DNA from: Escherichia phage slur16
Sequence record: NC_028248.1
Reading direction: 5' to 3' (one strand)
DNA: 64,000 nt
Below the pieces are notes generated by a model. That model ran no database searches and was not told where the DNA came from. It saw only the letters and a program-made list of their open reading frames with translations. The translations under genes and the position numbers were made by a program. Below, in pieces: positions 1 to 14,518 of this stretch (the first letter of the stretch is position 1; each line of letters opens with the position of its first letter).

Positions 1-47
1 ATCCAGTGATAGTATCCACACATCGTTTGGAGAATATGGGATACACA

Positions 48-137
48 ATGAAAACATTGTCAGAGGTTTTGGTGGTGATCCTGATGATCATTACGTCCAT
101 AGTGGCTGTTGCCGGAATACTCACGGGTGGAACATGA
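48..137 (+). CDS. small hydrophobic peptide (29 aa, one predicted TM helix)
   Basis: ATG at 48 with GGAGA upstream; stop overlaps ATG of next ORF (ATGA at 134-137); below the 60-aa track cutoff, found by eye. Confidence 0.25.
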   Translation: MKTLSEVLVVILMIITSIVAVAGILTGGT

Positions 138-346
138 TAAACACACATGCATCTGAAGAGACATCCAAAGGAGTGACTATATGTCCCTTGACTGAGCCAG
201 TGCAAGAGGAAAACTTCGATTCTGAAGATTCTTCATCTTCGCTCCAGGTAGATCCTGAGGCTGATGACCTGACGTGGGAAGACATCGTAGATATCTGGTT
301 CTCTATTATGCCTGAGCACGAAGAGTTCAGGGGTGGTAGACTATGA
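134..346 (+). CDS. hypothetical acidic protein (70 aa)
   Basis: Track ORF; start overlaps the upstream small ORF stop; competes with antisense ORF 121..360. Confidence 0.35.
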   Translation: MINTHASEETSKGVTICPLTEPVQEENFDSEDSSSSLQVDPEADDLTWEDIVDIWFSIMPEHEEFRGGRL

Positions 347-468
347 AGCACCGAGCCCACACCGGTTCCTCATGCTAAAGCATGGCCTGAAGAGGCAAAC
401 GTGCATAATTCCAGCGTATTGGAACGCATAAAACCCTGTTCACACTCTCATTTTCCAGAGGAGATTTC

Positions 469-684
469 ATGAAGATAGAGATATTTGGTGGAGCTGACAA
501 CACTCGTGGCCTGATTTACCTTGAATTCGATGAATCATACCTGCCAGAGGTGTTAAATATAGACTCTGTTGCTGAGGCTTTGGGAGTAAACCCTAAAGAA
601 CTCCACTCTTGTGCTGAGATTGATGGTTGGGAGGAGACCATGAACATTGATTTCAGTGAAGTAGGTGATGAACCACTGGACTGA
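469..684 (+). CDS. hypothetical protein (71 aa)
   Basis: Track ORF; GAGGAG 5 nt upstream of ATG. Confidence 0.45.
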   Translation: MKIEIFGGADNTRGLIYLEFDESYLPEVLNIDSVAEALGVNPKELHSCAEIDGWEETMNIDFSEVGDEPLD

Positions 685-813
685 CACACAATTAGCTGCC
701 CGGTTAAAGTGCTGGAAGCGCACCTATAACACATCTTTCAACTAAATTTCCCACCACCACAATCACTTACCTTCCACACATGACTGTTTGCTTGTTTAGT
801 GAGCAGTCATGCC

Positions 814-841
814 TTGACATTCTTGCCTATCCTGATAAAAT
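814..841 (+). promoter_or_regulatory. sigma70-like promoter (TTGACA-N16-TAAAAT) with no ORF downstream
   Basis: TTGACA at 814-819, TAAAAT at 836-841; followed by hairpin CCGAgtaatTCGG plus T-rich run (~860-885) and a GC-rich ORF-free stretch. Confidence 0.3.
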
Positions 842-1036
842 TAAGTTCTTCTCTTTTCTTTTACCGAGTAATTCGGGTTTTCTGTTCTCTTCGGTTTGAA
901 GGGGTATGGAGATACACCTGAGTGAACAGGGTGAACAACCGAACCATTGGCTATGGCATTAGCATGGCGAAGCGGACGGGTGACGAAAGAGGGGCCGGAG
1001 GACACCAGTCACTGCCATATGATATATGGGTGATAA

Positions 1037-1596
1037 CCTGAAGAGTCTGAATAAGTGTTTAAGTACCAGTCAGAGGAAAAGGTGAATGGTAGCCGAAGGG
1101 GGAGGGGGGTTTCTTGTATCTTTAATTTGTATATTATGTATACACTTGTAAACCAATCTCATCTGAATCTGTTTACCACACAAAGCGGATAGAGACAAAT
1201 ATCACCTATTAAACTTGAATTATTTATAGAAAATACCACAACACCACTTAAGTCTTTGATTTTACACACAAATCCTACAGATATTCAACCTCCATATTTA
1301 ACATACTTGTAACATATTCCATACTCTACCTGTCTGATCAATCTACCCAACCACATCCTTCATATTTTCCCTGTCTGTACCACCCCTGCCCCGCCGGGAG
1401 TCCCGTCATATCTGGCTTTCCAGCAAATATCACACCCACAAATATCATTGCCTGAAGAGGGTTTCATCCCATAATACATGCCTTACCTGAAGAGCGCTTC
1501 ATACACCACGTAAATTTTTTAATTGACCTGCAATTTTCCCGTCATGACCCCCTGCCCCGCCGGAGAGGTTGGCTTTTCCCACACAGACCTGAAGAG
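1037..1596. repeat. dispersed short repeats: cctgaagag x4 and cccctgccccgccgg x2
   Basis: cctgaagag at 1037, 1451, 1486, 1588; cccctgccccgccgg(g)ag at 1383 and 1548. Confidence 0.5.
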
Positions 1597-2165
1597 TCAG
1601 CCAGAAATATCTGAACAGGCCCAATTCTACCACGATTTTGACCTGACCTACAGGAGTGCTGCCAGGCGGACGAAATGGGAATACTTCTCATTCTTATAAC
1701 AATTCTCAAATATCAAGGCAGTGAGGCAAATTAATAGGCTAGGCCGTTCACACAGTGGCACAACATTTGCAACCTATCTTGTGGGGGTGAATGAGAATAC
1801 CTATCATTGTGAGAATAGTTATCATTACGGGCAATTTAACATAATACCCATTATGCGCACCACTGGCGATACATACAGGGATTGATAACATGGGTTACTG
1901 TTTACGCACATAACAATTATATTTCTTATTATTTGTGGGGGATATAGTTAGCAGCCGATAGATTAGATATTAACCTGCAGACTTCTGACCGTCCAGACGT
2001 CTAAACGCCCACACACCAAGGATTATACATACACTCCTGAATGTAAACAGGGCCGCAAAAATGCTACCATACAAGCTTGTAAATTTTTCATGCAGCACTT
2101 GACAAAGAGGAGGAAAACTTGTCTGACACTTTAGACACAATAGTGACACAATATGACATAATTGA

Positions 2166-2310
2166 CATGCATGACTGTTTACGCTCTCATTATTCACGCT
2201 ATTACTATTCACTCCCTTTACTATTCACGCTCTTACTGTTTACATGCTTAATAGTACACATGACCAATAGTTTACATAGCTAACTGTTCACGTATAGACT
2301 ATTTACACAA
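2166..2310. repeat. iteron-like tandem array (~8 copies of ~16-bp unit, consensus ACTRTTYACNC)
   Basis: Tandem units such as attattcacgc, actattcactc, actattcacgc, actgtttacatgc, agtttacatagc, actgttcacg, ctatttacac read directly. Confidence 0.5.
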
Positions 2311-2321
2311 AGATGATAAGA

Positions 2322-2577
2322 CATGCCATTCGTTTGCATGACAATAATTATACATGACAATAATCACACTGATTATAATTAGCATGACATAATATAAAAG
2401 CAGGGCAACTATTAGCAGATCTATAGTTGCCTTGCTTGTTATGTCATGATTAACTAAATACAAGGCAACTATGATCTGATTAATAGTTTGCAGACAAACC
2501 ATCACGGGGGTGATGGTTACTGCTTTTATATTATGTCGCGACTCCGTCGCGCCATGCCATTCGTTTGCATAGTTGCC
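2322..2577. repeat. 18-bp direct repeat pair bracketing three palindromes
   Basis: catgccattcgtttgcat at 2322-2339 and 2553-2570; palindromes ggcaactat/atagttgcc (2404-2431), aaccatca-cggggg-tgatggtt (2497-2518), cgcgac-tcc-gtcgcg (2536-2550). Confidence 0.5.
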
Positions 2578-3231
2578 TTATTGTTACGAATAAAACAATT
2601 GCATTGTTAATGATTTCTTATCTTTCTCTTAGTCATCTAATGATTCCAGTCAGTATAGTAATGTACAGTAAACATTAGACGACTAAAGATTTCTCTGTTT
2701 ATTATAACTCACCGTTATAATTTCGAGCTGTTTACGAAAAATGTTGACATCCTAGCCGATTTATGTTATGCAGTTTACACGAATAATTATTTTATGCAGG
2801 TATTGACTATTCCGTTATTCTATGGTTGGAATAAATACTTAGCAGGCTATAGACTGGTGAGCGTACGTAAATTCTGAGATCTGGCGGCTATAGTTATACT
2901 CGATTTTTCACGTAGAACACGCTTTTGTGGTTATGTAAGTGCATGACTTATAAAGATTTTTAGTTGTTGACAAGATATTGGAGATGTGCATCAGGTTAAA
3001 ATTTGTGCAATAGCGGCATTACGTGCAATTTTGGAAGGGAAAACGGGTAAAAATGGCCTTGCTACCACACAATGAAAAATTATGCAATAGTTATTTTCCA
3101 TGTATATTTGTACAGTGTGCGGGATTGATGGCTCGTCAATTATTCCACTTGCCAGGTAGGGCCGTTTATGGTAGGAAAAGAGAAGACAAAAAGAAAGGGG
3201 CTTTAAGCCCCTGACCGTTCATCTTGTTGTA

Positions 3232-3495
3232 TTATTTGTTGCTCATCCAGTTTTCCCAAGCTGCCTGATAATCTGCCTCACTACGGCGGATCTCTTCTTG
3301 TTCTTCAAGTCGGATCTCTTCTTCCAGGTACCCCAAGATGTCAGCCTTTTTGGTCTGGCGTAGCATCCAGTCATCTTTTTTGCGGGTAAAGATCTTATAA
3401 GCTTTCTCGCAAACCTCTTTTTTGCTACCTTTCTGGACTTCCAGAACACGATAAGCCATATATTGAACTAGTTTGAGCTGGTCAAGACGTTTCAT
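3232..3495 (-). CDS. hypothetical protein (87 aa)
   Basis: Track ORF; last gene of the minus-strand early array. Confidence 0.45.
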   Translation of the reverse strand: MKRLDQLKLVQYMAYRVLEVQKGSKKEVCEKAYKIFTRKKDDWMLRQTKKADILGYLEEEIRLEEQEEIRRSEADYQAAWENWMSNK

Positions 3496-3557
3496 GATGT
3501 TTTTCCTCTTTATGTGGTTTTTGTTTAGTGGGCCTTTTGGCCCGTGTCATTATCTTA

Positions 3558-3830
3558 TTACTTACGGCGGCAGAATTCAAGCGTTTTTAATTGATAATCT
3601 TCCTCAGCCTGGAGTACAACCGCCTCGATCATTTCGTTGGCATTGTTGAAGCCATACCCTTTAGCGAACTCATCCGCACCACCTTCGTGATCATGTTCTG
3701 CGTTCATCGCTTCCACGAAATGGAATTCAAGATTATTGAGATAAGGGCTTGATGTTCCGTCCTCTTTTTCGATGAGATCCCAAATAGCATTAAAACGTGA
3801 TTCGACTTCTTGATTAATCCAGCTTGACAT
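3558..3830 (-). CDS. hypothetical acidic protein (90 aa)
   Basis: Track ORF; preceded on minus strand by promoter, hairpin gggcacttttgcccc and AGAGAGGAAAA before ATG. Confidence 0.5.
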   Translation of the reverse strand: MSSWINQEVESRFNAIWDLIEKEDGTSSPYLNNLEFHFVEAMNAEHDHEGGADEFAKGYGFNNANEMIEAVVLQAEEDYQLKTLEFCRRK

Positions 3831-3883
3831 AATGTTTTCCTCTCTTCTGGTTGTTGTGTGGGCACTTTTGCCCCTTCAAGATA

Positions 3884-3912
3884 AATGTTACCCCACCACC
3901 TGGCAGATGTCA
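3884..3912 (-). promoter_or_regulatory. sigma70-like promoter (TTGACA-N17-TAACAT)
   Basis: Minus strand TTGACAtctgccaggtggtggggTAACAT; -35 = plus 3907-3912, -10 = plus 3884-3889. Confidence 0.4.
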
Positions 3913-3938
3913 ACGGTTTTTATAGTTCTTATATGACA

Positions 3939-3969
3939 GGCAGGCCCGGTGATTGTCTCCCCCCCCCCC
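3939..3969 (-). repeat. E-element copy C (inverted) ending in an 11-nt homopolymer tract
   Basis: Plus 3939-3961 is the exact reverse complement of 13530-13552 (23 nt); C run at 3959-3969. Confidence 0.55.
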
Positions 3970-4039
3970 GTCGCCAGGTGCCTGCCGTGTAATAAGTATA
4001 ACAAAAAACAGGACAAAAGCAAGCCCTGTTTTGTAAAGA

Positions 4040-4243
4040 TTAGATGATCTGCATATCCTCCACGATAATTTCTAATTTCCAAACAAGATGATCTAAGCTC
4101 CCTGATAAAAATGATTCCGATACATAACCGCCATCGGACACCGTAGCAAGGATCTCGCCATTTGCTTGCTCTTTGATTTGAACATCCAGGCGGTTAGCCT
4201 TTGCTTTGTTCAGGACGGCGATCAGGCGGTTAGCTGTAGTCAT
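4040..4243 (-). CDS. hypothetical protein (67 aa)
   Basis: Track ORF; followed on minus strand by hairpin acaggGCTTGCTTTTGTcctgt plus T-run. Confidence 0.45.
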   Translation of the reverse strand: MTTANRLIAVLNKAKANRLDVQIKEQANGEILATVSDGGYVSESFLSGSLDHLVWKLEIIVEDMQII

Positions 4244-4327
4244 GGTGTTTTCCTTTCAGTTGTGAGCGGCACCATTGCCGCCCTACGTGATACATCTTAC
4301 ACTATCAGATACATTGTGCAAGCTATT

Positions 4328-4519
4328 TTAGATCTCGTCACCTATATAATCAGATCTGTTCTTCTCTGTCATACGCTTAAGCAATTCCTGCATATAGCTT
4401 ATGGCTTGCAAGGTGTCTTCCTCCAGGCTTGAATCAACATAATCAGGATCATTCTCAACCTTGCTATAGTTATGATAGCGTAACGCTGCCAATACCTTTC
4501 TAACTTGTTCAACATTCAT
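4328..4519 (-). CDS. hypothetical protein (63 aa)
   Basis: Track ORF in co-directional array. Confidence 0.4.
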   Translation of the reverse strand: MNVEQVRKVLAALRYHNYSKVENDPDYVDSSLEEDTLQAISYMQELLKRMTEKNRSDYIGDEI

Positions 4520-4668
4520 TTTTATCGCTCTTTAAAACAAGGTGCCAACCGTTTCTAGTAGATCACTGACCACCAGGACAATACTGATCAGCACATATCT
4601 AACCATAAGGGGAAAGAGCGCCAGCGATCCCGCCACAATCCCCAAGGTAATGATTATCTTTTTCACGG

Positions 4669-4953
4669 TTAACGGTTAACGTAAGCTTTACCGTTCACGG
4701 TTATGGGTAGATCCTCCAGGTCTGGATCTTCCTTAAGGTCGCGAGCAAGCTCACCGCACCGGATACCCTCGAATCCGTAGTACTCTGTTGTACCGTCATT
4801 AAAAGTTTTAGCGGCAAGGCATAAGCGATAAGTAACCCCGATTTGATTGACGGCATGGATATCCGTTAGATCAACCTCTTTTGCCAGCTCTTTAGCCATT
4901 ACAGGCGCATTAAGTCCAACAACCAGGGCAACTACTGCGATCATCTTTTTCAT
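4669..4953 (-). CDS. hypothetical secreted protein (94 aa, N-terminal signal peptide)
   Basis: N-terminus MKKMIAVVALVVGLNAPVMA looks like a signal peptide. Confidence 0.5.
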   Translation of the reverse strand: MKKMIAVVALVVGLNAPVMAKELAKEVDLTDIHAVNQIGVTYRLCLAAKTFNDGTTEYYGFEGIRCGELARDLKEDPDLEDLPITVNGKAYVNR

Positions 4954-5044
4954 TGTGTCTATCCTCTTTCTGCTACGTTTAAGGCGGCGGTAACCGCCTG
5001 TTTATGATTTATTGGTTAATTTTCAGGTATCGCTATAAATTAAA

Positions 5045-5269
5045 CTATGCTGTACGCTCAACTATAACAACGGTTTGAGGGATCTCACCTTCCACCACTA
5101 TCAAGGCCTTTTTCTGCGTGATGGATATCTTTACCCGTTGCAGCGTGGCGGTGAAGTCTTTCATTTCGTCACGTGGTGTTTTAGTGCAATGCCAGATCTC
5201 AGGCTTACCTATTTGCAAGCCGCGTAAAAATTCTGTTTTACCTGTCTTATTCGTGATCATTTGATTCAC
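5045..5269 (-). CDS. hypothetical protein (74 aa)
   Basis: Track ORF. Confidence 0.4.
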   Translation of the reverse strand: MNQMITNKTGKTEFLRGLQIGKPEIWHCTKTPRDEMKDFTATLQRVKISITQKKALIVVEGEIPQTVVIVERTA

Positions 5270-5270
5270 C

Positions 5271-5375
5271 TTAACCGATACCGTGGGAAGATAGGATCAT
5301 GTTAGCCATAGTTGCAACCACTCCAACCGATAATGCCAGGCCAACTACTACAACCGTGAAAATTTTCTCTAACAT
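5271..5375 (-). CDS. small membrane peptide (34 aa; track version starts at 5474)
   Basis: Internal ATG at 5375 preceded by GAGGGT; the longer track start would overlap the upstream small ORF. Confidence 0.3.
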   Translation of the reverse strand: MLEKIFTVVVVGLALSVGVVATMANMILSSHGIG

Positions 5376-5458
5376 GATTCTACCCTCATTAATGGGCGTT
5401 GCCTTATTGCCCCGCCCTACGAAATACAGTCTATCAAGTAATAAACTATTGTCAAGAT

Positions 5459-5596
5459 TTATTTTACTTCCCAAACGGAAAATTCACTACCTGGCGGAAT
5501 CATCTTTTTAATCTTGTTTGCTGCTGCTACCAGATCCACGGCTTGTACTGTAATAATATAACCAATTGTCGAGGCTGTTGCGTTGAAAGTTTTCAT
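5459..5596 (-). CDS. small hypothetical protein (45 aa)
   Basis: Found by eye: promoter, hairpin gcgggaatacttcccgc, GAGGGT, ATG at 5596, TAA at 5459-5461. Confidence 0.3.
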   Translation of the reverse strand: MKTFNATASTIGYIITVQAVDLVAAANKIKKMIPPGSEFSVWEVK

Positions 5597-5644
5597 TAAA
5601 TTACCCTCATTAATGGCGGGAAGTATTCCCGCGCTATGTAGTAC

Positions 5645-5672
5645 ACTTTACCAGATTGTTGACTGTTGTCAA
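5645..5672 (-). promoter_or_regulatory. sigma70-like promoter (TTGACA-N16-TAAAGT)
   Basis: Minus strand TTGACAacagtcaacaatctggTAAAGT. Confidence 0.35.
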
Positions 5673-5678
5673 ACTATT

Positions 5679-5858
5679 TTAACGATAATCATCATATGCT
5701 TTATTGACCTGGCGAATATAACATTCAAAAGCTAGATCAATAGATTTATATTCACGGATATATTCACCATAGGAAACCACATACATTTCTATAGCTTCCT
5801 CATATGCGAGGAGAATAGAATCTAAGCCTACGATCTCAGTCTTTGCAATAATAGCCAT
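5679..5858 (-). CDS. small hypothetical protein (59 aa)
   Basis: Found by eye, just under track cutoff: ATG at 5858 (MAIIAKTEIVGL...), TAA at 5679-5681. Confidence 0.35.
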   Translation of the reverse strand: MAIIAKTEIVGLDSILLAYEEAIEMYVVSYGEYIREYKSIDLAFECYIRQVNKAYDDYR

Positions 5859-5935
5859 GATTTTTATCCTCTTTGTGGTTGGTGGGGCTTGTTGCCCCCC
5901 CTTTGATTTATATATTACAGTCTTATATGGTCATG

Positions 5936-6169
5936 TCAACTATTTTCAAAAAATTTTTCTGCTGTGATATTTTTCCCGGTCGGATTTGCTACTTTCAAAA
6001 TTCTATCATGAACCGGACGCCCGAAAGAATAAGATCCGTATACAGTAAACCAATAATCGCCGTCAGGTTGTACTATTACCGCCGCATATGGTACGCCTTT
6101 TTCGTTTTTGCTGACAAAATAGATCACATTGCCATTAATAGCCTCAGCGCGTTTAATTTGTTCCATCAT
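5936..6169 (-). CDS. hypothetical protein (77 aa)
   Basis: Track ORF; hairpin ggggccttttcggcccc upstream. Confidence 0.45.
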   Translation of the reverse strand: MMEQIKRAEAINGNVIYFVSKNEKGVPYAAVIVQPDGDYWFTVYGSYSFGRPVHDRILKVANPTGKNITAEKFFENS

Positions 6170-6223
6170 GATGATTTACCTCTCTTTATTTTCATAATTG
6201 GGGCCTTTTCGGCCCCGCCAGGT

Positions 6224-6508
6224 TTATTTATTGATAGCGTGCAGCGGGAAAGGTACTCCAGGTTGATAGATAACTTTTACAACCTCATCAGGGCAAAAGA
6301 AATTGCAGAATTCACCCTGATAAGCCTCATCCTCTTTCAATTCTTCATCAACATACTCAAAAAAGTAGTCGATGCTTGGATAATCCTGGCCGGGATTATA
6401 GTCTACCATCGTTAATAACAATTCTTGATCATTCCGTAGGATATGCATACCCGCTTTTAAGTATTTTGCTTCCATTTCCACTACATCGCCAACGGTGATA
6501 ATAGCCAT
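6224..6508 (-). CDS. hypothetical acidic protein (94 aa)
   Basis: Track ORF. Confidence 0.45.
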   Translation of the reverse strand: MAIITVGDVVEMEAKYLKAGMHILRNDQELLLTMVDYNPGQDYPSIDYFFEYVDEELKEDEAYQGEFCNFFCPDEVVKVIYQPGVPFPLHAINK

Positions 6509-6709
6509 GATTTTAACTCCTATCTATCCGGTTAATGATTGGGGGCCGCCCCCCTGACACGTCCTATTATCCATATTGTAGGACTTGATGCAAGTACTTC
6601 TTTAAAAATTTTTTAAGCGCCTTGGGGCCGCTGTAACGCTAAAATAATAAAGGCCATGCAACCGCATAGCCTTTATGTGATTATATCGCTGCAGGCCCTG
6701 CCTGGGGCC

Positions 6710-7060
6710 TTATTTTGCATTCTTGCCTGTATTGCCGCCACGGTACCAGCGTTTGCGGTGAAAATGGTAATAATCACCCTCGGCATTAAACATCAGATGA
6801 TTTTCAATAACCAGCTTACGAAGGTGGGCCGGATCTTGTTCCATTCTTGCCAGATTCCGGCGGCTGTTACGTAAACGTATAAATTCCATATTCAGGCCGT
6901 TGATTGCAGCATGGATGTCAAAGTAACCCCCTTTGAGACGTTCACGCATGGCGTTAAGCTCAACACAATATGCAGATTTCTCACAAATCAAGGTATTAGC
7001 TAGGGCGCGGACCTGGGCAAGGGGGTTAAGCTCATTAAGGTAGTATAGTTTGACTTTCAT
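6710..7060 (-). CDS. hypothetical protein (116 aa)
   Basis: Track ORF. Confidence 0.45.
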   Translation of the reverse strand: MKVKLYYLNELNPLAQVRALANTLICEKSAYCVELNAMRERLKGGYFDIHAAINGLNMEFIRLRNSRRNLARMEQDPAHLRKLVIENHLMFNAEGDYYHFHRKRWYRGGNTGKNAK

Positions 7061-7077
7061 AAAATCACCTGCTGAAA

Positions 7078-7386
7078 TTAGTTTGAGAAAACATCGTTCA
7101 CAATAGCGATCACAATGCCGCCCACCTTGTCACGGTCAACAATGCACAAATCGCCATGGATCATGCGGTAGTCTGGATGATCTTTCACAGAATAGTCAAT
7201 AAGTGTTTTCTTGTCGTCCAGCTTCGTAACTTCCATTCTCATAACGATATGAGAATCATCAAAGGCATTATTCCGAAAAGTCATAGCCTGACCGCCAGGG
7301 CACCCGGTGATCTCCACTTCCACACCGTCTACGATCTGACCATCAAAGAAATAAAGATTATTAGCCTGGATAAACATGTCTATCAC
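7078..7386 (-). CDS. hypothetical protein (102 aa)
   Basis: Track ORF; 45-bp hairpin element lies ~40 nt upstream of its start. Confidence 0.45.
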   Translation of the reverse strand: MIDMFIQANNLYFFDGQIVDGVEVEITGCPGGQAMTFRNNAFDDSHIVMRMEVTKLDDKKTLIDYSVKDHPDYRMIHGDLCIVDRDKVGGIVIAIVNDVFSN

Positions 7387-7425
7387 TCCTTGTTAACTGC
7401 GTGGTATTTTTAACAGGGTTTAAAT

Positions 7426-7470
7426 TTACTTTATTGATGGCCCTGGAGTCAAGGCCATCTAAAAATAAAT
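7426..7470 (-). repeat. 45-bp intergenic hairpin element, copy 1
   Basis: tttactttattGATGGCCctggagtcaaGGCCATCtaaaaataaa; 7-bp stem GATGGCC/GGCCATC; starts 2 nt after the upstream gene stop. Confidence 0.55.
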
Positions 7471-7471
7471 T

Positions 7472-7672
7472 TTACAGGCCTACAATCTCTTTGATTCGTT
7501 TAACCGCTGCCTCAGCGCCTTGGGGGTAAAAATTATGGTAACCAATCACGCGAGTGATACTAATCGCCGTTTGATGATCTTCATAGTCGCCCTTGAAGAT
7601 TTCTTGACCGTCAATCAGCACGGCAATTTTTTCTTCTTTTTTGAAGTTAATAACGCGGATATTGTTGCTCAT
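7472..7672 (-). CDS. hypothetical protein (66 aa)
   Basis: Track ORF. Confidence 0.45.
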   Translation of the reverse strand: MSNNIRVINFKKEEKIAVLIDGQEIFKGDYEDHQTAISITRVIGYHNFYPQGAEAAVKRIKEIVGL

Positions 7673-7812
7673 TTTGTTTCTCCTTTCTGGTTTTTGTGGT
7701 GGTGGGGATTAGCTCCCCGTTGATTGTTATTATCCACATTCCGGACCGGATTGCAACACCCCGGAAGAATTTTTTTTTTAAAAGATAGGCCCCCATGATC
7801 GGGGGGCCGTTC

Positions 7813-7932
7813 TTAGTTACTTACAGCGATAAAGTACATCCCTACCCCTAACAATATTTCAAGGGCGATGATCTCAAGCCATACCATAACACGGCGCGCC
7901 TTATCGGTGCGGGGCTTATCCTTGGGTGTCAT
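7813..7932 (-). CDS. small membrane peptide (39 aa)
   Basis: Found by eye: ATG at 7932 (MTPKDKPRTDKARRVMVWLEIIALEILLGVGMYFIAVSN), TAA at 7813-7815. Confidence 0.25.
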   Translation of the reverse strand: MTPKDKPRTDKARRVMVWLEIIALEILLGVGMYFIAVSN

Positions 7933-7952
7933 CGTCTCCCCCTTTCCCCCTG

Positions 7953-8174
7953 TTAGTAGTGACGTGGTTTACAATGGCCCCCAGGAGTACCATCACTACG
8001 CACACCACAAGAAAAATTATCTCTGTCGTTGTTCGATCCATTGTTATAAAATTCCTCAAGATCAGGCTTGAAAATAAAGCGTTCGTTATTGAATCCATCA
8101 CGCCAGGCGGCTGGCTTCAAATCTTCACTAAAGGGATTAATTAACGTGGCATTATTTAAACGGTTGGCCCACAT
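7953..8174 (-). CDS. hypothetical protein (73 aa; track start 8192)
   Basis: GAGAGGAA 8 nt upstream of the ATG at 8174. Confidence 0.35.
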   Translation of the reverse strand: MWANRLNNATLINPFSEDLKPAAWRDGFNNERFIFKPDLEEFYNNGSNNDRDNFSCGVRSDGTPGGHCKPRHY

Positions 8175-8556
8175 ATTTTCTATTCCTCTCAAATAGGCGA
8201 TCCGCCTCAGTTAAACATATCTCATGGGCTTGATCTCTGGTTTTAGCCTCATCGAAAACTTGTTGTGCCAGGCTGCAGCGTAGGGAGACTGGAAGATCAC
8301 TATAATAGGCGTTGACAAACGTTTGAGCGTCGTACAGGTCTGAAAATACTTTACCCTTTCTATTATTCCCCTTGTCAACAATTGCAAGGATAACAAGCAC
8401 AATAGTTGCAACCACCCCCAGGAAAATAGATATAATAAACCATAAAAAGGCGGATCTACCCATCTTGCCAGCGATCCAGGCGTTGAACAAGGCAACTACT
8501 ACAGCCAAAATAATAAATTCCATTCTATGTACCTCTTTTGCAGTTCTGTTTAACAA
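8152..8556 (-). CDS. hypothetical membrane protein (134 aa)
   Basis: Two hydrophobic segments near the N-terminus. Confidence 0.45.
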   Translation of the reverse strand: MLNRTAKEVHRMEFIILAVVVALFNAWIAGKMGRSAFLWFIISIFLGVVATIVLVILAIVDKGNNRKGKVFSDLYDAQTFVNAYYSDLPVSLRCSLAQQVFDEAKTRDQAHEICLTEADRLFERNRKYVGQPFK

Positions 8557-8587
8557 TAAGGCGGCAAATATGCCGCCTGTTACCTGA

Positions 8588-8968
8588 TTAAAAATTATCG
8601 CCGTAAATCTTTCCGCTTTCTGCCCACACCACCACGCGGGGCATGTTATCCCATACGTCTTGTTTTAGATTGAGCGCGTGCAATTCTTCGGTGGTGCCCA
8701 TACCGGGCACGGGCTGATTGTATACTGCAAAACGACCACCCGCATAGTCATAGGCCAGGGTTAAATCACACTGGATCATCTTTTTGATCATGGCGTTGAG
8801 CATAGCGTTAGCCGCATACTGGTCACGTTTTAGGGGCAACTCTTTGATTAGTTTGCGATAGTTTTCAATGTGATCGCACACTGTTTCACGTGGAAGATCT
8901 TTCATATCTTCACGGAATGTAACCAGGTTAAACATAACGGTGTCAATAGCCTTGGTAGTGTTTTTCAT
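8588..8968 (-). CDS. hypothetical protein (126 aa)
   Basis: Track ORF. Confidence 0.45.
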   Translation of the reverse strand: MKNTTKAIDTVMFNLVTFREDMKDLPRETVCDHIENYRKLIKELPLKRDQYAANAMLNAMIKKMIQCDLTLAYDYAGGRFAVYNQPVPGMGTTEELHALNLKQDVWDNMPRVVVWAESGKIYGDNF

Positions 8969-9057
8969 AATGTTTTCCTCTTTGTTTTGTGTGGGGCAAA
9001 CGTCTTGCCCCCTTGAGTTTTAATATAGCAGGTTTTTAGGTTATTGCAACACTTTAT

Positions 9058-9681
9058 TTATGAAAAAGTCATCTCGCCATATTCATCCACATCAAACCGC
9101 CAATCATTGGCCTCAATAAGGCCGATCAGGTTTTCGGTAGTAAACTGTTCAAGATAGGCCTCCTCCAGGTCTACGTAAACCTTGCGGGATAGCTCCCGTA
9201 CCGTCTCGGTGATCAGCTCTTCCAGGTCTTCCACTTTGTTTTCTTGTTTGGCGGTCAGATCTAGCCAGGTGGTATCAATGTATCCGCTTACAGTGTTTTC
9301 GTGACTATAGCGGCTATATGGATCACGCTCAACACTGGCTGATAACTCGCCATCGTGCATTGTGCCGAACAAGTGACGAATTGATCGGAACTTGGTCAGG
9401 GCCTTTACTTTACGCAAAAATTTTTCTAAATCCACGTTTTCAGCACTGATTGACGCGCCGTCACCCTGGCACCAAAAGCCTGACCAATGTACTTCGGTAT
9501 CTTCAAGGCCATACTCTGGAAAAACATATTCTTTATAGTATTCAATTACACTTTCTGCAAAAAAGTTATCCCCGCTGTGTTCTTCTCTTTCGCGGACCAT
9601 TTCAACGGCTTTTTCTTTTTGTTCGTCGGTCAGCACGTCGAAAGATAAATTGTAACCTGCGGTAATGTTAACGGTGGTCAT
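9058..9681 (-). CDS. hypothetical acidic protein (207 aa)
   Basis: Strongly Asp/Glu-rich; promoter, hairpin ggcgggaaaaattcccgcc and GGAGA upstream. Confidence 0.5.
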   Translation of the reverse strand: MTTVNITAGYNLSFDVLTDEQKEKAVEMVREREEHSGDNFFAESVIEYYKEYVFPEYGLEDTEVHWSGFWCQGDGASISAENVDLEKFLRKVKALTKFRSIRHLFGTMHDGELSASVERDPYSRYSHENTVSGYIDTTWLDLTAKQENKVEDLEELITETVRELSRKVYVDLEEAYLEQFTTENLIGLIEANDWRFDVDEYGEMTFS

Positions 9682-9738
9682 GATATTTTCTCCTATTTTC
9701 TTTGTTAGTGGCGGGAATTTTTCCCGCCTGTGTGTTTA

Positions 9739-9766
9739 AGTATACTTATTGAGGCTTACTTGTCAA
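9739..9766 (-). promoter_or_regulatory. sigma70-like promoter (TTGACA-N16-TATACT)
   Basis: Minus strand TTGACAagtaagcctcaataagTATACT. Confidence 0.4.
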
Positions 9767-10016
9767 CACTATTTTTTAAATTATTGTGGCGTAAAATGTT
9801 TAGAATCTCTTCAACGTCATCAACACGGCGGCAATTTTTAAACGCTACCAATTGCCCCCGGATCTTAATCACTGGGCGGCCTTGCCAGTGCCCCTGGAGA
9901 AAGCGCGCTTTAACTTTATCGGTGGAACTATCACGCCACCAAACGGCCTTATTATTGCAGTAGTAAAAATTATTCAGGACAACATCGACTTTATCAAAAT
10001 TTTTTAATTTACGCAT
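9756..10016 (-). CDS. hypothetical protein (86 aa)
   Basis: Track ORF; GAAAGGAG before ATG. Confidence 0.4.
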   Translation of the reverse strand: MRKLKNFDKVDVVLNNFYYCNNKAVWWRDSSTDKVKARFLQGHWQGRPVIKIRGQLVAFKNCRRVDDVEEILNILRHNNLKNSVDK

Positions 10017-10051
10017 GGCGTTTACTCCTTTCTTCTTGCTTTGATGTGGTT

Positions 10052-10080
10052 AGTATATCCAGGCGATTCCAAGGTGTCAA
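10052..10080 (-). promoter_or_regulatory. sigma70-like promoter (TTGACA-N17-TATACT)
   Basis: Minus strand TTGACAccttggaatcgcctggaTATACT. Confidence 0.4.
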
Positions 10081-10250
10081 GCTTTAAATAAAAGATATTT
10101 TTAACACCATAAAACGGTCCTGGGTGATGTTTTCAGGCTAAGAAAGGGGATTGCATAGGTAGGGGCTTTTGTGGCGTTTGTGGGGCCAACCAGGGGCGCT
10201 ATTCGTAGGATAGAAATAAAAAGCCCCGCACAATGGCGGGGCGTTGGTTG

Positions 10251-10472
10251 TTATTTGCCTTTGTGGCGGTATCGTTCCGCCTGTCGTTCACGTTCCAAAA
10301 GCAGGCCCGGTAATTTGCGATCATAGTGATTCCTCCAGATCTTCCCGAACCTTTTCGGTTTATTCAGTTTATTGTTACGCTGGCGGCGTTCCGGCAGCTC
10401 TTCGGAATCGTGGGGGCGCTTTACAATTTTTTCGAAATTAATTTTCATAAATTTCCCCTTTACTAATTTCAA
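10251..10472 (-). CDS. hypothetical basic protein (73 aa)
   Basis: Track ORF, Lys/Arg-rich; overlaps upstream gene 3-prime end. Confidence 0.3.
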   Translation of the reverse strand: MKLVKGKFMKINFEKIVKRPHDSEELPERRQRNNKLNKPKRFGKIWRNHYDRKLPGLLLERERQAERYRHKGK

Positions 10473-10791
10473 TATTTGCCTGAATCGCCCGGATACGACG
10501 TTTTATGACCTCCTGATCCTTGCAATCATATCCCCAAAAGTCTACGATCTTTGCGCCTCCGGCCTTTAGGCGGTATAGTGTTTCCTGCATCTTGTAAGCT
10601 GGGATCGGTCGCGGTGTTACCTGGTCGCCTCTCTCATCTTTGTACTTGATTATGTAGTCTTCGTTGTCGTTGAATACCCAAAATGGGTATTCTGTGAGCG
10701 CGTTGCTATCTTTTTCGTTTTTAGATTGGATCTTGTTTACAATTAAAGCCGTAGCAATAGCGCCAATAATAAAACTAGCCCCGCTGATCAT
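10438..10791 (-). CDS. hypothetical membrane-anchored protein (117 aa; track start 10854)
   Basis: AAGGAG 6 nt upstream of the ATG at 10791; N-terminal hydrophobic helix. Confidence 0.4.
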   Translation of the reverse strand: MISGASFIIGAIATALIVNKIQSKNEKDSNALTEYPFWVFNDNEDYIIKYKDERGDQVTPRPIPAYKMQETLYRLKAGGAKIVDFWGYDCKDQEVIKRRIRAIQANIEISKGEIYEN

Positions 10792-10819
10792 GTACTTTCT
10801 CCTTTCATGGTGTTGATAA

Positions 10820-10865
10820 ATTATCTTTATAGATGGCCCTGCAGCCAGGACCACCGAAAAAATAA
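10820..10865 (-). repeat. degenerate copy of the 45-bp intergenic element
   Basis: ttatctttatagatggccctgcagccaggaccaccgaaaaaataa shares the ctttatagatggccctg half; palindrome not preserved. Confidence 0.35.
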
Positions 10866-11111
10866 CTATTTCACAATGCCTACAAAACAGATCCCGCCTT
10901 CACCTATATAAGCAATATCGGTCACTTTATAACTTGTCAAGATCTGCTTATTTAGTTCATTAATAAAATCGGTCATTGCGTTGGTGTAGTTGTCTTCCGT
11001 GTCTAAGGCATAATCCCAGGTGTACACCTTTTTACGTCCGAAGCCTTTTACCATGATACGGGCGCTTTTGGTGTTGGTAGGGGCATAATATTTGGTGATT
11101 AGTGCTGCCAT
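10866..11111 (-). CDS. hypothetical protein (81 aa)
   Basis: Track ORF; AGGAG before ATG. Confidence 0.45.
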   Translation of the reverse strand: MAALITKYYAPTNTKSARIMVKGFGRKKVYTWDYALDTEDNYTNAMTDFINELNKQILTSYKVTDIAYIGEGGICFVGIVK

Positions 11112-11154
11112 GGTTTTAACTCCTATGCATTAGTTCAGTGTTAACAGTATAAAG

Positions 11155-11198
11155 TTTACTTTATAGATGGCCCTGGTGTCAAGGCCATCTAAAAATAA
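11155..11198 (-). repeat. 45-bp intergenic hairpin element, copy 2
   Basis: tttactttataGATGGCCctggtgtcaaGGCCATCtaaaaataa. Confidence 0.55.
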
Positions 11199-11200
11199 GC

Positions 11201-11542
11201 TTACTCGTTTTCTTCCAGCTCCGCAAGCTCTTCTTTTGCTTCTTCTAACTCTGTCTGTAATTCCTGGTATTCTTCATCGTCCTCAATATCCAGGCTGTCG
11301 ATGTAGTCGCTAAATCCGCAGCGGTAAGCGATAGGATCTAGCTCCTTGAGGATACGCGACGGAAGAAAAGAAATGTTTCCGATCATAATTTCGCCGTAGA
11401 TCTCGTCTAACCATTCATCATAGTTTTCGTCGTACTTGTCCTCGTCGATTTCAAAGTTATCGATCTTATTCTCAAGGTCTGCGATCTGTTTTTTCAGTTC
11501 AGCGATCTGCATAGCTTTTTCTGAGGCGGTCATAGTAGTCAT
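11201..11542 (-). CDS. hypothetical acidic coiled-coil protein (113 aa)
   Basis: Heptad-like N-terminus, very acidic C-terminus (…EEAKEELAELEENE); near-consensus promoter upstream. Confidence 0.5.
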   Translation of the reverse strand: MTTMTASEKAMQIAELKKQIADLENKIDNFEIDEDKYDENYDEWLDEIYGEIMIGNISFLPSRILKELDPIAYRCGFSDYIDSLDIEDDEEYQELQTELEEAKEELAELEENE

Positions 11543-11593
11543 GGTGTTTTTCTCCTTTTGTGTGTTCTGGGAAGTTTTCCCGTTTATGTGCTT

Positions 11594-11621
11594 ATTATAT
11601 CGATTTAAGTTAGCTTGTCAA
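11594..11621 (-). promoter_or_regulatory. sigma70 promoter, near consensus (TTGACA-N16-TATAAT)
   Basis: Minus strand TTGACAagctaacttaaatcgaTATAAT, then hairpin gggaaaacttccc and GGAGA. Confidence 0.5.
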
Positions 11622-11741
11622 TTAAAAGTTTAAGAAAAATTTTGCGACACCGTTGGCGCTACCCATCAACATTTGCGCCAGGATGTACCCAATGATGCAA
11701 ACGATGATGGTTACCTTTGTGTGCTGGCGTGTAGTGCTCAT
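11622..11741 (-). CDS. small membrane peptide (39 aa)
   Basis: Found by eye: GGAGG then ATG at 11741 (MSTTRQHTKVTIIVCIIGYILAQMLMGSANGVAKFFLNF). Confidence 0.3.
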   Translation of the reverse strand: MSTTRQHTKVTIIVCIIGYILAQMLMGSANGVAKFFLNF

Positions 11742-11775
11742 CTTTAAGCCTCCTTTTCCGCTCAACTGTGGTTAG

Positions 11776-11820
11776 TTTACTTTATTGATGGCCCTGGTGT
11801 CAAGGCCATCTAAAAATAAA
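11776..11820 (-). repeat. 45-bp intergenic hairpin element, copy 3
   Basis: tttactttattGATGGCCctggtgtcaaGGCCATCtaaaaataaa; ends 2 nt before the upstream gene stop. Confidence 0.55.
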
Positions 11821-11821
11821 C

Positions 11822-12217
11822 TCAATAAGTTTTTAGTACTTTCCCGTCCAATCTGTCAAGCTGGATCTCAATAGCTGCAGAAAATCTATTGTAAACCACA
11901 TCGCCCAGGGAGTCCAGCCAATCTATGACGTTATACACCTGCTCTTTATTCTTGCAAGTCCGGATCCGTTTCATTACGTAAGACGGATCAATATTAGCGC
12001 TCTCGTTGTTGTGGTCCTGCGCCTGGCCTGCTGCGCTAGTTATAGATTTTACAACCACCTGAAAGGGCTTTAAGGTGCCTTTTGCGTTCATCTCACGCGC
12101 TTTTGCGGCGCGGTTGTTATATGTTACACAACGGCGGCAAATGTTGACCAAATGCATATCAATAATTTTTTCATCGTTTGCCAGTTCGTTCATGATGCGG
12201 CGTACGTTCTTATTCAT
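11822..12217 (-). CDS. hypothetical protein (131 aa)
   Basis: Track ORF; promoter, hairpin ggcgggaaacatcccgcc and AGAGGAAA upstream. Confidence 0.5.
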   Translation of the reverse strand: MNKNVRRIMNELANDEKIIDMHLVNICRRCVTYNNRAAKAREMNAKGTLKPFQVVVKSITSAAGQAQDHNNESANIDPSYVMKRIRTCKNKEQVYNVIDWLDSLGDVVYNRFSAAIEIQLDRLDGKVLKTY

Positions 12218-12262
12218 AGCTTTTCCTCTGTGTTGGCGGGATGTTTCCCGCCTTTTGTGCCT

Positions 12263-12290
12263 AGTTTACTTGAATTTTGCAGCGTGTCAA
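12263..12290 (-). promoter_or_regulatory. sigma70-like promoter (TTGACA-N16-TAAACT) with A-tract upstream
   Basis: Minus strand aaaaaaaaaaaaattaTTGACAcgctgcaaaattcaagTAAACT. Confidence 0.45.
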
Positions 12291-12304
12291 TAATTTTTTT
12301 TTTT

Positions 12305-12703
12305 TTATTCGTGGGCGCATGTTACAATGTGCTTTTTATAGCCCAAGTGGTTAGCAAGTGCCGCCAAAAACTCTTCTTCATAGATCCAGCCGTCGGCAGT
12401 GATTCCCATGGCACTTAATGCGCTTTCAAGTGCAGCGTTGGCTTTATCATAACCGTGACCGCTCGCCTTGCCGCCAGTATAACCGTACTTATTGTTCTTG
12501 TTGTCGTGAATCCAAAATACACAGTAATGAGTGTTACCGCTGGCGGCGGCATAATACCGGATCTCAGCTACTTCGTGCAAATTATTGTCATCGTCCAGGC
12601 CCACCAGATTATAGGCCTTGTAGAATCCGCGATCACGGCGGCAGCTTTTAACATCAGAAAAAGAGAAGTCAGCATTATTAAAATTAAAGGTTGTGGTTTT
12701 CAT
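12305..12703 (-). CDS. hypothetical protein (132 aa)
   Basis: Track ORF; AAGAGGA before ATG. Confidence 0.5.
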   Translation of the reverse strand: MKTTTFNFNNADFSFSDVKSCRRDRGFYKAYNLVGLDDDNNLHEVAEIRYYAAASGNTHYCVFWIHDNKNNKYGYTGGKASGHGYDKANAALESALSAMGITADGWIYEEEFLAALANHLGYKKHIVTCAHE

Positions 12704-12735
12704 GATTTTATCCTCTTAGTGTCTTTTGTGCTTTC

Positions 12736-12764
12736 AGTATATTTTGTTTCAGACTGTATGTCAA
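12736..12764 (-). promoter_or_regulatory. sigma70-like promoter (TTGACA-N17-TATACT)
   Basis: Minus strand TTGACAtacagtctgaaacaaaaTATACT. Confidence 0.4.
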
Positions 12765-12767
12765 TAC

Positions 12768-12965
12768 TTATTTTTTATTAAACCAGTGGTTGATCTGACC
12801 TTTTGTCAGGGCGCAACGATTAAGCTGTTGCAGGGTATAGCTATGACCGCGACGAAATTTATAAAGGCCTTGCCCGTTGTTGATGGTTACATCCACCCGG
12901 CAAATCACTTGATTGGTGACCACCTGGCGAGTGTTGCGACGTGCTTTGATTCCGTATGCGTTCAT
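12768..12965 (-). CDS. hypothetical basic protein (65 aa)
   Basis: Track ORF; AGAGAGGATAA before ATG. Confidence 0.35.
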   Translation of the reverse strand: MNAYGIKARRNTRQVVTNQVICRVDVTINNGQGLYKFRRGHSYTLQQLNRCALTKGQINHWFNKK

Positions 12966-13259
12966 GATTTCTTATCCTCTCTGTTAATTAGTGTGGTGTT
13001 GTTCACCTTGCGAGAATAAGAATAACAAGAACTGTCCGAGCTGTCAACCACTATGCAAAATTATTTTTGGGCAAAATTCTCCAGCCGCCGCCCCTGCCAG
13101 GTTAACCACCGTTTTCGTACTCTTCTTTATGTTCCGGTGCTTCCGTTTTAGCCTTCTCGACCAGGGCGATAGCTTCCGTATCATCAATTACTATTTTCCA
13201 GGTGAGTAGCATTACCTTTCATTTTTGTACCTCTTCTGTAGCTGTTCACTTTATAGCGC

Positions 13260-13560: not shown

Positions 13561-13699
13561 TGCAAACGAGAATGATTATCATTCAAAATTCTAAATGAGA
13601 ACTCCTCGCATTTAATAAATTTAATTAGCATGCTAATTACCCTCCGTAACAATTTCCTATAAAACAGTATCCCATAAAATATTCCCATATAGAAATTTT

Positions 13700-13890
13700 A
13701 AAAATCCATTTCTGAAAACGAAAAATCGATTTCGTCCCCAAAAATTTCAGGTCGAGATCCGGAACGATTTCCAGAAAATCCGATTTAGAAAACGAAAAAC
13801 AGATCGAGTACTGAGAAATTTATCGAGAAAAATTTTCAGAAAATCCAAGCCATGAAATGAAAAGTAGATCGAGTACTGGAAAAATTGTAC
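13700..13890. repeat. degenerate tandem repeats (~3 copies, period ~65 bp)
   Basis: agaaaatccgatttagaaaacgaaaaacagatcgagtactgagaaa vs agaaaatccaagccatgaaatgaaaagtagatcgagtactggaaaa; aaaatcc box also at ~14045 and ~14132; inverted repeat atcaggag/ctcctgat at 14124-14158. Confidence 0.5.
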
Positions 13891-14185
13891 CGCAACCCAC
13901 TGATAGTGATGGGTTTTCCGTCATAAATCACTAAGAGTGAGTGGAGAAAGGTATGGTGGAGAGGTGTGTATGTGTGGGAAATCTGTAATGGTGGCCTGAA
14001 ATATGGTGCAAACGGCTAGATAGATTGGCACAATTTTCCGCGCCTGTGTTGAAAAAATCCATTTCAGTTTTCGATCCATTTTCTGATTTTCTAAGAATTT
14101 TAAAATATCTATGTGTTCAAAATATCAGGAGAAAATCCATTTTAGAAATTCTCCTGATTTCTGGCAACTTGGCAATTTAAAAATA

Positions 14186-14518
14186 TCAGGTGCCCAGTTT
14201 GTTCTTTCCTTTATATAAACGCAAGGGTATAGTTTTTGTAACAGTCCACCTTCCTACACCTTCCCAGTTCCAGTTGTAGGCATGGTACCCGGTTACGCAT
14301 GCACTGCTAGAGTGGTCATAGGCATAAGAGAACGCTATACGCACCAGGTGGGGCCAGTCCTTCCATGGTTGTGGTCCGTAAGCTTTTCTCCAACACCGAC
14401 ACAAACTAAATGTCTCAAGAATAGGTAGGATAACAAATCCATACACCGCCACCAGAATAGCCAGCGCAATGATTGTCAGGAATACATACCCTGCAGTTGA
14501 AACGATGATCTCTGTCAT
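14186..14518 (-). CDS. hypothetical membrane protein (110 aa)
   Basis: Long N-terminal hydrophobic segment. Confidence 0.45.
   Translation of the reverse strand: MTEIIVSTAGYVFLTIIALAILVAVYGFVILPILETFSLCRCWRKAYGPQPWKDWPHLVRIAFSYAYDHSSSACVTGYHAYNWNWEGVGRWTVTKTIPLRLYKGKNKLGT

Follow-up and report, generated by a model that had tools for sequence, protein, structure and literature searches.

Terminal repeat and probable chromosome ends

A stretch of 64,000 nt from Escherichia phage slur16 (NC_028248.1; the whole stretch is called the window, and all positions are counted along it) contained at 685–3231 a region without open reading frames (ORFs), which was the region studied. We conclude, with a probability of roughly 80%, that this is the terminal (concatemer-junction) region of a phage chromosome whose ends are fixed and carry a short exact direct terminal repeat (DTR), in the T7 style. 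Virion DNA would start at 1665 and end at 2123 and would thus carry 1665–2123 at both ends, as has been shown for relatives. One repeat copy would join two genomes in replicating concatemers, and terminase would cut at 1664/1665 and 2123/2124, and the repeat would have to be duplicated. The basic elements were as follows.

685–3231, no strand: ORF-free region between converging gene units, corresponding to the box marked "non-coding" on the rV5 map
1665–2123, no strand: 459-bp DTR, left cut 1664/1665 and right cut 2123/2124, boundaries from relatives
1834–1860, + strand: a 27-mer, ATTTAACATAAWACNNNTTATRCGCAC, which lies in the repeat and is more widely conserved than any other sequence of the region

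The first and last 459 bp of the HdK5 record were identical and mapped to 1665–2123 at 98% identity. In the Gotham record a repeat_region is annotated at 1–459 and 136567–137025; its two copies were identical and mapped to 1665–2123 at 97.4%, with the same boundary sequences as HdK5. Both repeats were the same element as 1665–2123, with 97–98% identity and identical boundaries. The bov11CS3 and bov25_3 records began exactly at the left boundary and the ECP2303 record stopped exactly at the right one, and several GenBank records started or stopped inside the region. From the boundaries in HdK5, Gotham, bov11CS3, bov25_3 and ECP2303, the physical chromosome ends were therefore placed inside the region, at 1664/1665 and 2123/2124. 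The initial annotation of this DNA, made from the letters, had mentioned a packaging site as one option, and this option gained support from the ends. We infer the same sequence at both physical ends of the slur16 genome from the 97–98% identity and the identical boundaries. A 458-bp terminal redundancy of HdK5 and EdH4 (Korf 2019) and the terminal repeat of Gotham, with evidence for fixed ends (Dias 2020), have been published.

Twenty-five loci were aligned around the 27-mer, and the two columns of the HdK5 boundaries were taken as cut columns. In Klebsiella phage KPP-1 these columns delimited a 514-bp segment at exactly the published repeat coordinates; the KPP-1 paper reported a 514-bp DTR for which reads had 2x coverage and PhageTerm called the T7 type. 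A contig of 148,842 bp had its first and last base on the same columns, and its two ends held identical copies of 519 bp. HdK5/Gotham, KPP-1 and the contig thus gave three independent end determinations, from three genera, at homologous positions, and the KPP-1 repeat was homologous to 1665–2123 column for column.

Seunavirus, Mydovirus and the A5-4/LTH01 group shared this layout, with genes that converge on a gap of 1.7–2.3 kb free of ORFs and a repeat at its centre. The gap was 2,268 bp in PVP-SE1, with flanks of 666 and 1,087 bp, and 1.77 kb in KPP-1. Right-flank proteins led to the equivalent region in other genera. A 101-aa regulator-like upstream protein was tried as a synteny guide and dropped, being conserved in other genera in another gene order, so that the equivalent region was not reached. 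A short stretch inside the repeat, written as the 27-mer, was the only blastn match of the region to the ORF-poor gaps of A5-4 and LTH01.

Exact matches to the 27-mer were present in 21 IMG/VR stretches (20 contigs), most of which aligned with the subfamily and three of which did not. The latter were L027 (261,806 bp), L042 and L033, which may be unrelated large phages with a common binding site; in L027 and L042 the 27-mer was followed, some tens of nt on, by an inverted partial copy of itself, ATTATGTTAAATGCGCAC.

The repeat would be an assembly artefact if the phage packaged by the headful, from a pac site in the region, with permuted and redundant genomes. In one 2026 paper, PhageTerm gave headful packaging with partial permutation for a Vequintavirus, phage BpE1AUH, and many GenBank records of the genus begin at arbitrary points; such starts, however, are expected when assemblers circularise a short repeat. 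Two laboratories have reported the same 458/459-bp repeat with identical boundaries, the doubled coverage in KPP-1 covered exactly the homologous segment, and the contig ends, from a third genus, were on the same alignment columns. Instead of permuted ends without a fixed right end, both ends were fixed and homologous in three lineages of relatives. We consider headful packaging very improbable.

Setting and coding status of the region

The + strand genes stopped at 684 and the − strand genes at 3232; both units therefore converge on the region, as the initial annotation had described. The flanking genes encode hypothetical proteins of 71 and 87 aa. The region was 100% identical to 4317–1771 of Escherichia phage slur12 (LN881735.1; Vequintavirus, rV5-like). 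Nucleotide matches to it were found in 120 phage records, all rV5-like, and none was found at the nucleotide level outside Vequintavirus. The rV5 paper (2013) drew here, in the legend of its Fig. 2, a grey "non-coding" box between genes 163 and 164, with converging transcription units; no function was assigned to the box, and the GC-skew switch there was put down to gene orientation. The right border of the region was marked by one further element.

3196–3212, − strand: intrinsic terminator serving the converging − strand unit; the records of Alma, Murica and HdK5 have it annotated as such

Fifteen genomes were aligned over the region. The flanking gene at 469–684 had 7, 4 and 26 variable sites at codon positions 1, 2 and 3, and no ORF of the region showed an excess at position 3 over the first two positions. 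This makes the region truly non-coding, in agreement with its earlier description as ORF-poor. Hidden small genes were rejected as candidates on the same count, the ORFs being open in relatives merely through DNA conservation. ARAGORN found no tRNA. Conservation formed a mosaic: 785–1114 was nearly invariant and the most conserved part, 1205–2100 and 2555–3215 were conserved moderately, and the tandem array at 2105–2310 was the least conserved part. According to the initial annotation, ends mapping elsewhere and a lack of conservation would speak against a role; the ends lay inside the region and the region was conserved, and it therefore stands as a real functional region. Every feature that had been listed for it was present at its coordinates.

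Cut-site motifs and recognition-site candidates

2098–2123, + strand: right-end block of CTTGACA, 17–18 purine-rich nt, TGTC and the cut; kept in 17 of 19 distinct subfamily sequences
1197, 1425, 1440, 1605 and 1708 (1197–1714), + strand: five AAATATC motifs, the last 43 nt inside the terminal repeat
1037, 1451, 1486 and 1588 (1037–1596), + strand: four CCTGAAGAG motifs, with a fifth at 386, also on the + strand

Across Vequintavirinae the left cut had the motif TGCYA/GRCGGAC and the right cut the motif CTTGACA-N17/18 (purine-rich)-TGTY/TAGCA, the slash being the cut. The motifs were kept in 19–21 distinct sequences. Contig L030, 86% identical overall, was 100% identical over 2087–2146. The unique sequence directly outside both cuts formed, by eye, an approximate inverted pair, TGCYA and TRGCA.

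AAATATC occurred 27 times in the window, where 11 copies were expected. One copy was at +43/+44 from the left cut in 22 of 22 subfamily loci, with one to four more same-strand copies 30–640 nt upstream of it. Conservation and geometry suggest that terminase would recognise the boundary blocks and the AAATATC words. The same-strand words would be the best recognition-site candidates, one fixed 43–44 nt inside the repeat and the others upstream. Three more same-strand copies formed an intergenic cluster at 14103–14187, in an ORF-poor stretch (~13690–14185) with AAAATATCAGG twice; therefore, the motif may be a general phage binding site and not specific to packaging.

CCTGAAGAG had been listed four times in the initial annotation and the 15-mer CCCCTGCCCCGCCGG twice. 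The four copies of the former were found at 1037–1596, besides the fifth at 386; the window held six copies against 0.52 expected, and the five at 386–1596 were all on the + strand. The motifs were conserved in relatives, and A5-4 and LTH01 had two CCTAAAGAG copies on the equivalent strand. Exact copies of CCCCTGCCCCGCCGG were at 1383 and 1549, the second in a stretch gapped in about one-third of the relatives. Immediately behind the last + strand gene of KPP-1 (L023 2693–2715), CCTGAAG formed part of the loop of a terminator-like hairpin overlapping a promoter-like site; the CCTGAAGAG copies of the window (e.g. 1586–1602) formed no hairpins comparable to this one.

Multi-hairpin stem element

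2322–2339 and 2553–2570, + strand: 18-bp exact direct repeats CATGCCATTCGTTTGCAT, bracketing a 231-bp module
2386–2537, no strand: multi-hairpin element of 152 nt, closed by a perfect stem of 18 bp; the GC-rich block GCGACTCCGTCGCGCC comes next, at 2538–2552

The direct repeat at 2322 and 2553 and three palindromes between its copies had been recognised before. The copies of CATGCCATTCGTTTGCAT proved exact, and the palindromes were found at 2398–2437, at ~2461–2495 and, as a terminator-like + strand hairpin with a T-run, at 2497–2518. An 18-bp perfect inverted repeat (2386–2403/2520–2537), which the initial annotation did not mention, enclosed them all in one stem element. The sequence 2380–2545 folded with z-scores of −10 to −12, as DNA or RNA and on either strand. 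Two short self-overlapping palindromes aside, the only long-range inverted repeats of the window were in or overlapped this element. Its core (2384–2552) was present in 116 records and was 95–99% identical in most.

Every genus examined had a perfect inverted repeat of 16–23 bp, with arms 71–204 nt apart, at 183–405 bp after the right cut; the equivalent elements in other genera enclosed further hairpins and had behind them a GC-rich block with the pattern GTCGC..CGCGCC(A). The arms of ten sequences from six lineages were compared, anchored on the conserved outer GAC/GTC. Fifteen of the 18 positions differed, in each case on both sides, and Watson-Crick pairs filled 179 of 180 cells. Pairing within a genome follows from the choice of arms; the informative part is the homologous position, the divergence of the arms and the low chance rate, estimated at ~6e-5 per kb for inverted repeats of stem length. 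The ten elements folded with z-scores of −6 to −14. The perfect arms may be kept by selection for folding or by template-switch correction, and either way the strand would fold in vivo. Lying ~260 bp inside the left end, the stem element may, speculatively, be a strand-folding element for end maturation or priming.

The FV3 record (L005) lacked exactly the 231 bp between the 18-bp direct repeats, which the similarly named EPFV3-03/2025 possessed. The module was considered as a miniature transposon with an 18-bp target duplication and rejected as such: the inverted repeat was 47 and 15 nt off the direct repeats and did not abut them, so a deletion between direct repeats in FV3 is the simpler reading. 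An optional hairpin insert, GCCAGGTGACCTTTGGTCACCCCTTCGGGTG, absent here, followed position 2377 in rV5, Murica, APCEc02, LL12, A147 and S127, and a 33-bp optional insert, likewise absent here, followed position 2438 in rV5, LL12 and A147.

Promoter and invariant block

814–841, + strand: sigma-70 promoter (TTGACA, 16-nt spacer, TGnTAAAAT) directed towards the terminal repeat, no ORF after it
848–1112, + strand: nearly invariant purine-rich stretch, a candidate non-coding transcript, ending in G5AG6 (1098–1109) and followed by a T-rich run
1115–1330, no strand: AT-rich stretch (29.6% G+C) after the conserved block

The promoter without an ORF, noted in the initial annotation, held up: it matched at 11 of 12 positions, had an extended −10 (TG at 833–834) and ranked first in the scan. 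By number (14 found, 10.2 expected), promoter-like sites of the region did not exceed chance; all five TTGACA hexamers of the region were on the + strand. In L030 the −35 and −10 hexamers were kept, the spacer between them was diverged and 2 nt longer, and the 283 nt downstream of the promoter differed by only 5 substitutions. Kept hexamers and a near-fixed downstream sequence are the signature of a putative working promoter with a constrained product or target. At the equivalent place, KPP-1 and PVP-SE1 had weaker promoter-like sites on the same strand, with an extended −10. It may be, as a speculation, that the host-type promoter, reading towards the junction like phiOR of T7, opens or marks it.

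In a binned tally of the 15 genomes, ~14 of 330 sites varied at 785–1114, against ~31 of 180 in the neighbouring gene. L030 was 97–100% identical over 887–1126, and its flanking gene 82–93%. The invariant stretch was G-rich (32% G, 17% C). A host origin of the 785–1114 block was rejected, as it had no match in 5,426 E. coli genomes. The block was absent from KPP-1 and LTH01, and the other genera were likewise without it. The G5AG6 tract presumably resembles the G-rich conserved sequence block II of mitochondrial DNA. It was rejected as a conserved feature: in LTH01 and the CR3-type genomes the G-tracts were inside the repeat and not 560 bp upstream, so the position of the G-tract is not conserved.

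These data could also describe a non-coding RNA locus, in which 814–841 would drive an early RNA of ~265 nt (848 to ~1112) with a regulatory or anti-host function and the stem element would perhaps be a second structured RNA. The retention of the promoter hexamers despite spacer divergence, the near-identity downstream in a genome 86% identical overall and the rank of 785–1114 as the most conserved part of the region all fit an RNA, as do the extreme stability of the stem element, its arms that both change between genera and the + strand hairpin with a T-run at 2497–2518. Yet 846–1125 folded no better than shuffled sequence (z = −0.8), no canonical terminator was near 1112 and no good promoter was ahead of the stem element. 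Rfam 15 gave no match at E up to 1 over window positions 1–6000, and at E up to 10 over 780–1300 only two weak matches, of 13 and 11 bits; for the stem element there was no match to an Rfam family here or in five other genera. The stems of 18–23 bp were perfect and free of wobble pairs, which symmetry at the DNA level fits equally well, and no transcript data were found in the literature for any member. We regard an RNA locus as a tenable reading that falls somewhat short of even odds.

Tandem arrays and the question of a replication origin

2125–2171 (units 2125–2164), + strand: five GACAY units, spacing 9–11 bp, beginning 2 nt after the right cut
2176–2306, + strand: nine units with the core TRTTYAC, spacing 15–16 bp, the "iteron" array of the initial annotation

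About eight tandem units of ~16 bp had been placed at 2166–2310, and they were identified as the nine units of 15–16 bp at 2176–2306. All nine were in one orientation, matched one another at only 70–75% and were hypervariable in copy number and sequence among the 15 genomes, units being gained, lost and replaced. In LTH01, A5-4 and two other lineages, the spacer from cut to stem also contained short arrays, of unrelated sequence. KPP-1 had a trivial 7-bp repeat only at this place, and no array was found in PVP-SE1 or the CR3-type genomes.

The arrays and the optional hairpin inserts may be functionless products of slippage or template switching in a tolerated spacer beside a genome end. Copy number and sequence differed between genomes 92–97% identical elsewhere, whole units and small hairpin modules appeared and vanished among relatives, and the arrays at the same place in other genera were unrelated in sequence. 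On the other hand, the array began 2 nt past the cut, the GACAY units carried the word GACAYWAT, which is the outer part of the conserved stem arms, the nine units shared orientation and period, and arrays recurred at the same position in at least four lineages. Lack of function is thinkable for these arrays, though we lean the other way. In the concatemer-junction reading, the arrays between cut and stem might be a spacer that evolves fast or else accessory binding sites, which is speculative.

The initial annotation had read the array and palindromes first of all as an iteron-type replication origin, and this received no direct support. Iteron origins of plasmids and lambdoid phages resemble the array in having short repeats in the same orientation beside AT-rich DNA and palindromes, and the AT-rich DNA was present (2311–2400, 27.8% G+C; 2124–2310, 34.2%). 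They differ in that the units here had a period of 15–16 bp, and not well-conserved repeats of ~17–22 bp stable among relatives, were 70–75% alike and hypervariable, and had no initiator (Rep) gene adjacent, there being no conserved ORF in the 2.5 kb. By its hypervariability, its period and the lack of an initiator gene, the array fails as an iteron set.

An origin could coexist with the ends, either of the iteron type, with an initiator bound to array and palindromes, or primed from the promoter; in the latter, primer RNA from 814–841 would end at G5AG6 before the AT-rich 1115–1330, as in the T7 primary origin or ColE1. Consistent with an origin were the two AT-rich stretches (1115–1330 and 2311–2400), the strong conserved promoter without an ORF and the G-rich invariant stretch after it, seven near-DnaA boxes (one mismatch) on the + strand at 1260–2198, the GC-skew switch, which falls in the region, and the T7-like replisome given in the rV5 paper (family A polymerase, gp4-like primase-helicase). 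Other observations counted against an origin. Close relatives differed strongly in the array, other genera had none or an unrelated one, and the array had neither the period nor the neighbouring gene of an iteron set; the 785–1114 block was missing from KPP-1 and LTH01; the G-tract was in another position, inside the repeat, in LTH01 and CR3; and the skew changed at a site of transcription convergence, where the rV5 authors explain it by gene orientation. DnaA boxes were rejected as a feature: with 78 in the window against 76 expected there was no enrichment, the consensus of the units was two mismatches off the box, and this likeness was, by estimate, no more than chance would give for one unit consensus. 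The literature yielded neither a transcriptome nor origin mapping for any Vequintavirinae member. An origin at this place appears unlikely.

Comparison with known systems

At the concatemer junction of T7 and T3, a pause of RNA polymerase brings in terminase and sets off maturation and packaging (PMC3276506); a hairpin form that includes the repeat has been observed during T7 processing and implicated in duplicating that repeat (PMC4281155). The region resembles these junctions in its short exact DTR, its fixed cut sites, the non-coding DNA on both sides and a gene-less promoter reading towards or through the junction. T7 and T3 are podoviruses of 40 kb with repeats of 160–230 bp, whereas this is a 137-kb myovirus with a repeat of 459 bp; the promoter here is of the host sigma-70 type, transcription of the flanking genes runs towards the ends on either side, the folded element takes the form of a multi-hairpin domain of 100–250 nt on the left-end side, and there is no sequence similarity to T7. 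Dunn and Studier reportedly described, in 1983, arrays of short repeats flanking the T7 repeat.

Several points weigh against a junction of the T7 style. The T7 hairpin involves the right-end side, and the stem here is on the left-end side of the repeat. The ends of the slur16 genome were placed from relatives 97–98% identical, with identical boundary sequences. The loss in FV3 means that the stem element is either dispensable or was lost in cloning or assembly; unless the deletion arose in those steps, it argues that the element is not strictly essential. The roles proposed for promoter, AAATATC words, arrays and stem were read from position and conservation. Finally, there is the headful call for BpE1AUH.

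The untranslated, repeat-rich terminal region of T5 with its "injection stop signal" is a looser analogue than the T7/T3 junction. The signal region of T5 is inside a repeat of ~10 kb and is tied to two-step injection; here the repeat has 459 bp, the likeness to DnaA boxes is weak and nothing suggests entry in two steps. As a domain of 100–250 nt with several hairpins that would fold only when single-stranded, placed where lagging-strand or end synthesis needs a start, the stem element may be akin to single-strand initiation signals (G4-type ssi, plasmid sso), with which it is not known to share sequence. The stem element could even represent an undescribed cis-acting class in large myoviruses with fixed ends, namely a strand-folding signal that would prime or template duplication of the repeat or end-proximal lagging-strand synthesis, the near-invariant, genus-specific RNA from 814–841 then crossing the junction as the trigger. 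We put this forward as a long shot, suggested by the sequences compared.

The terminal repeat is already published and the empty region has been known since 2013, so that the finding by itself is of a known kind. The papers on HdK5, EdH4, Gotham and KPP-1 give only the length and position of the repeat; they make no link to the rV5 "non-coding" box and contain no cut-site motifs, AAATATC spacing, arrays or stem element. In the literature no description was found that links the repeat to this box, nor of subfamily-wide cut-site motifs or fixed AAATATC spacing, nor of a stem element changing in both arms or an invariant promoter-driven block. With TGCYA/GRCGGAC and TGTY/TAGCA, true ends can be placed from sequence throughout the subfamily. 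Deposited rV5-like genomes number more than 100, and many have been put forward for therapy or biocontrol; the records open at arbitrary points and leave this region blank. True ends matter for annotation, for genome rebooting or synthesis and for judging transduction risk, in which fixed-end and headful phages differ. The region would offer a compact set of cis elements (AAATATC, boundary blocks, stem, promoter) for end maturation in a large myovirus, a process so far worked out mainly in T7.

Neighbouring genes and records

Compared with L004, in which it occupied 4105–4524, a 420-nt gene (rV5 ORF164, "Rel homology domain" in Murica) was missing at 3231/3232 of the window. It was also missing in slur12, pangalan, HdK5 and a few others, and in most relatives it was directly right of the region. 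The 87-aa product of 3232–3495 (− strand) is named "DNA translocase FtsK" in several records, which seems over-annotated given its small size. TTGACA recurred on the − strand through the small-gene unit at 3908–13047, mostly at distances of 60–600 nt and up to ~1.5 kb, suggesting many host-type promoters in an early region. An intergenic C11 homopolymer at ~3958–3968, on the side of the − strand genes, may be a slippage-prone tract.

Nineteen GenBank records of the MG0656xx series, named "Campylobacter phage", shared 87–94% identity with this region of the coliphage. By appearance they are rV5-like coliphages, and the Campylobacter host names are therefore doubtful. The one fetched, A147 (L009), was marked UNVERIFIED and carried no annotation.

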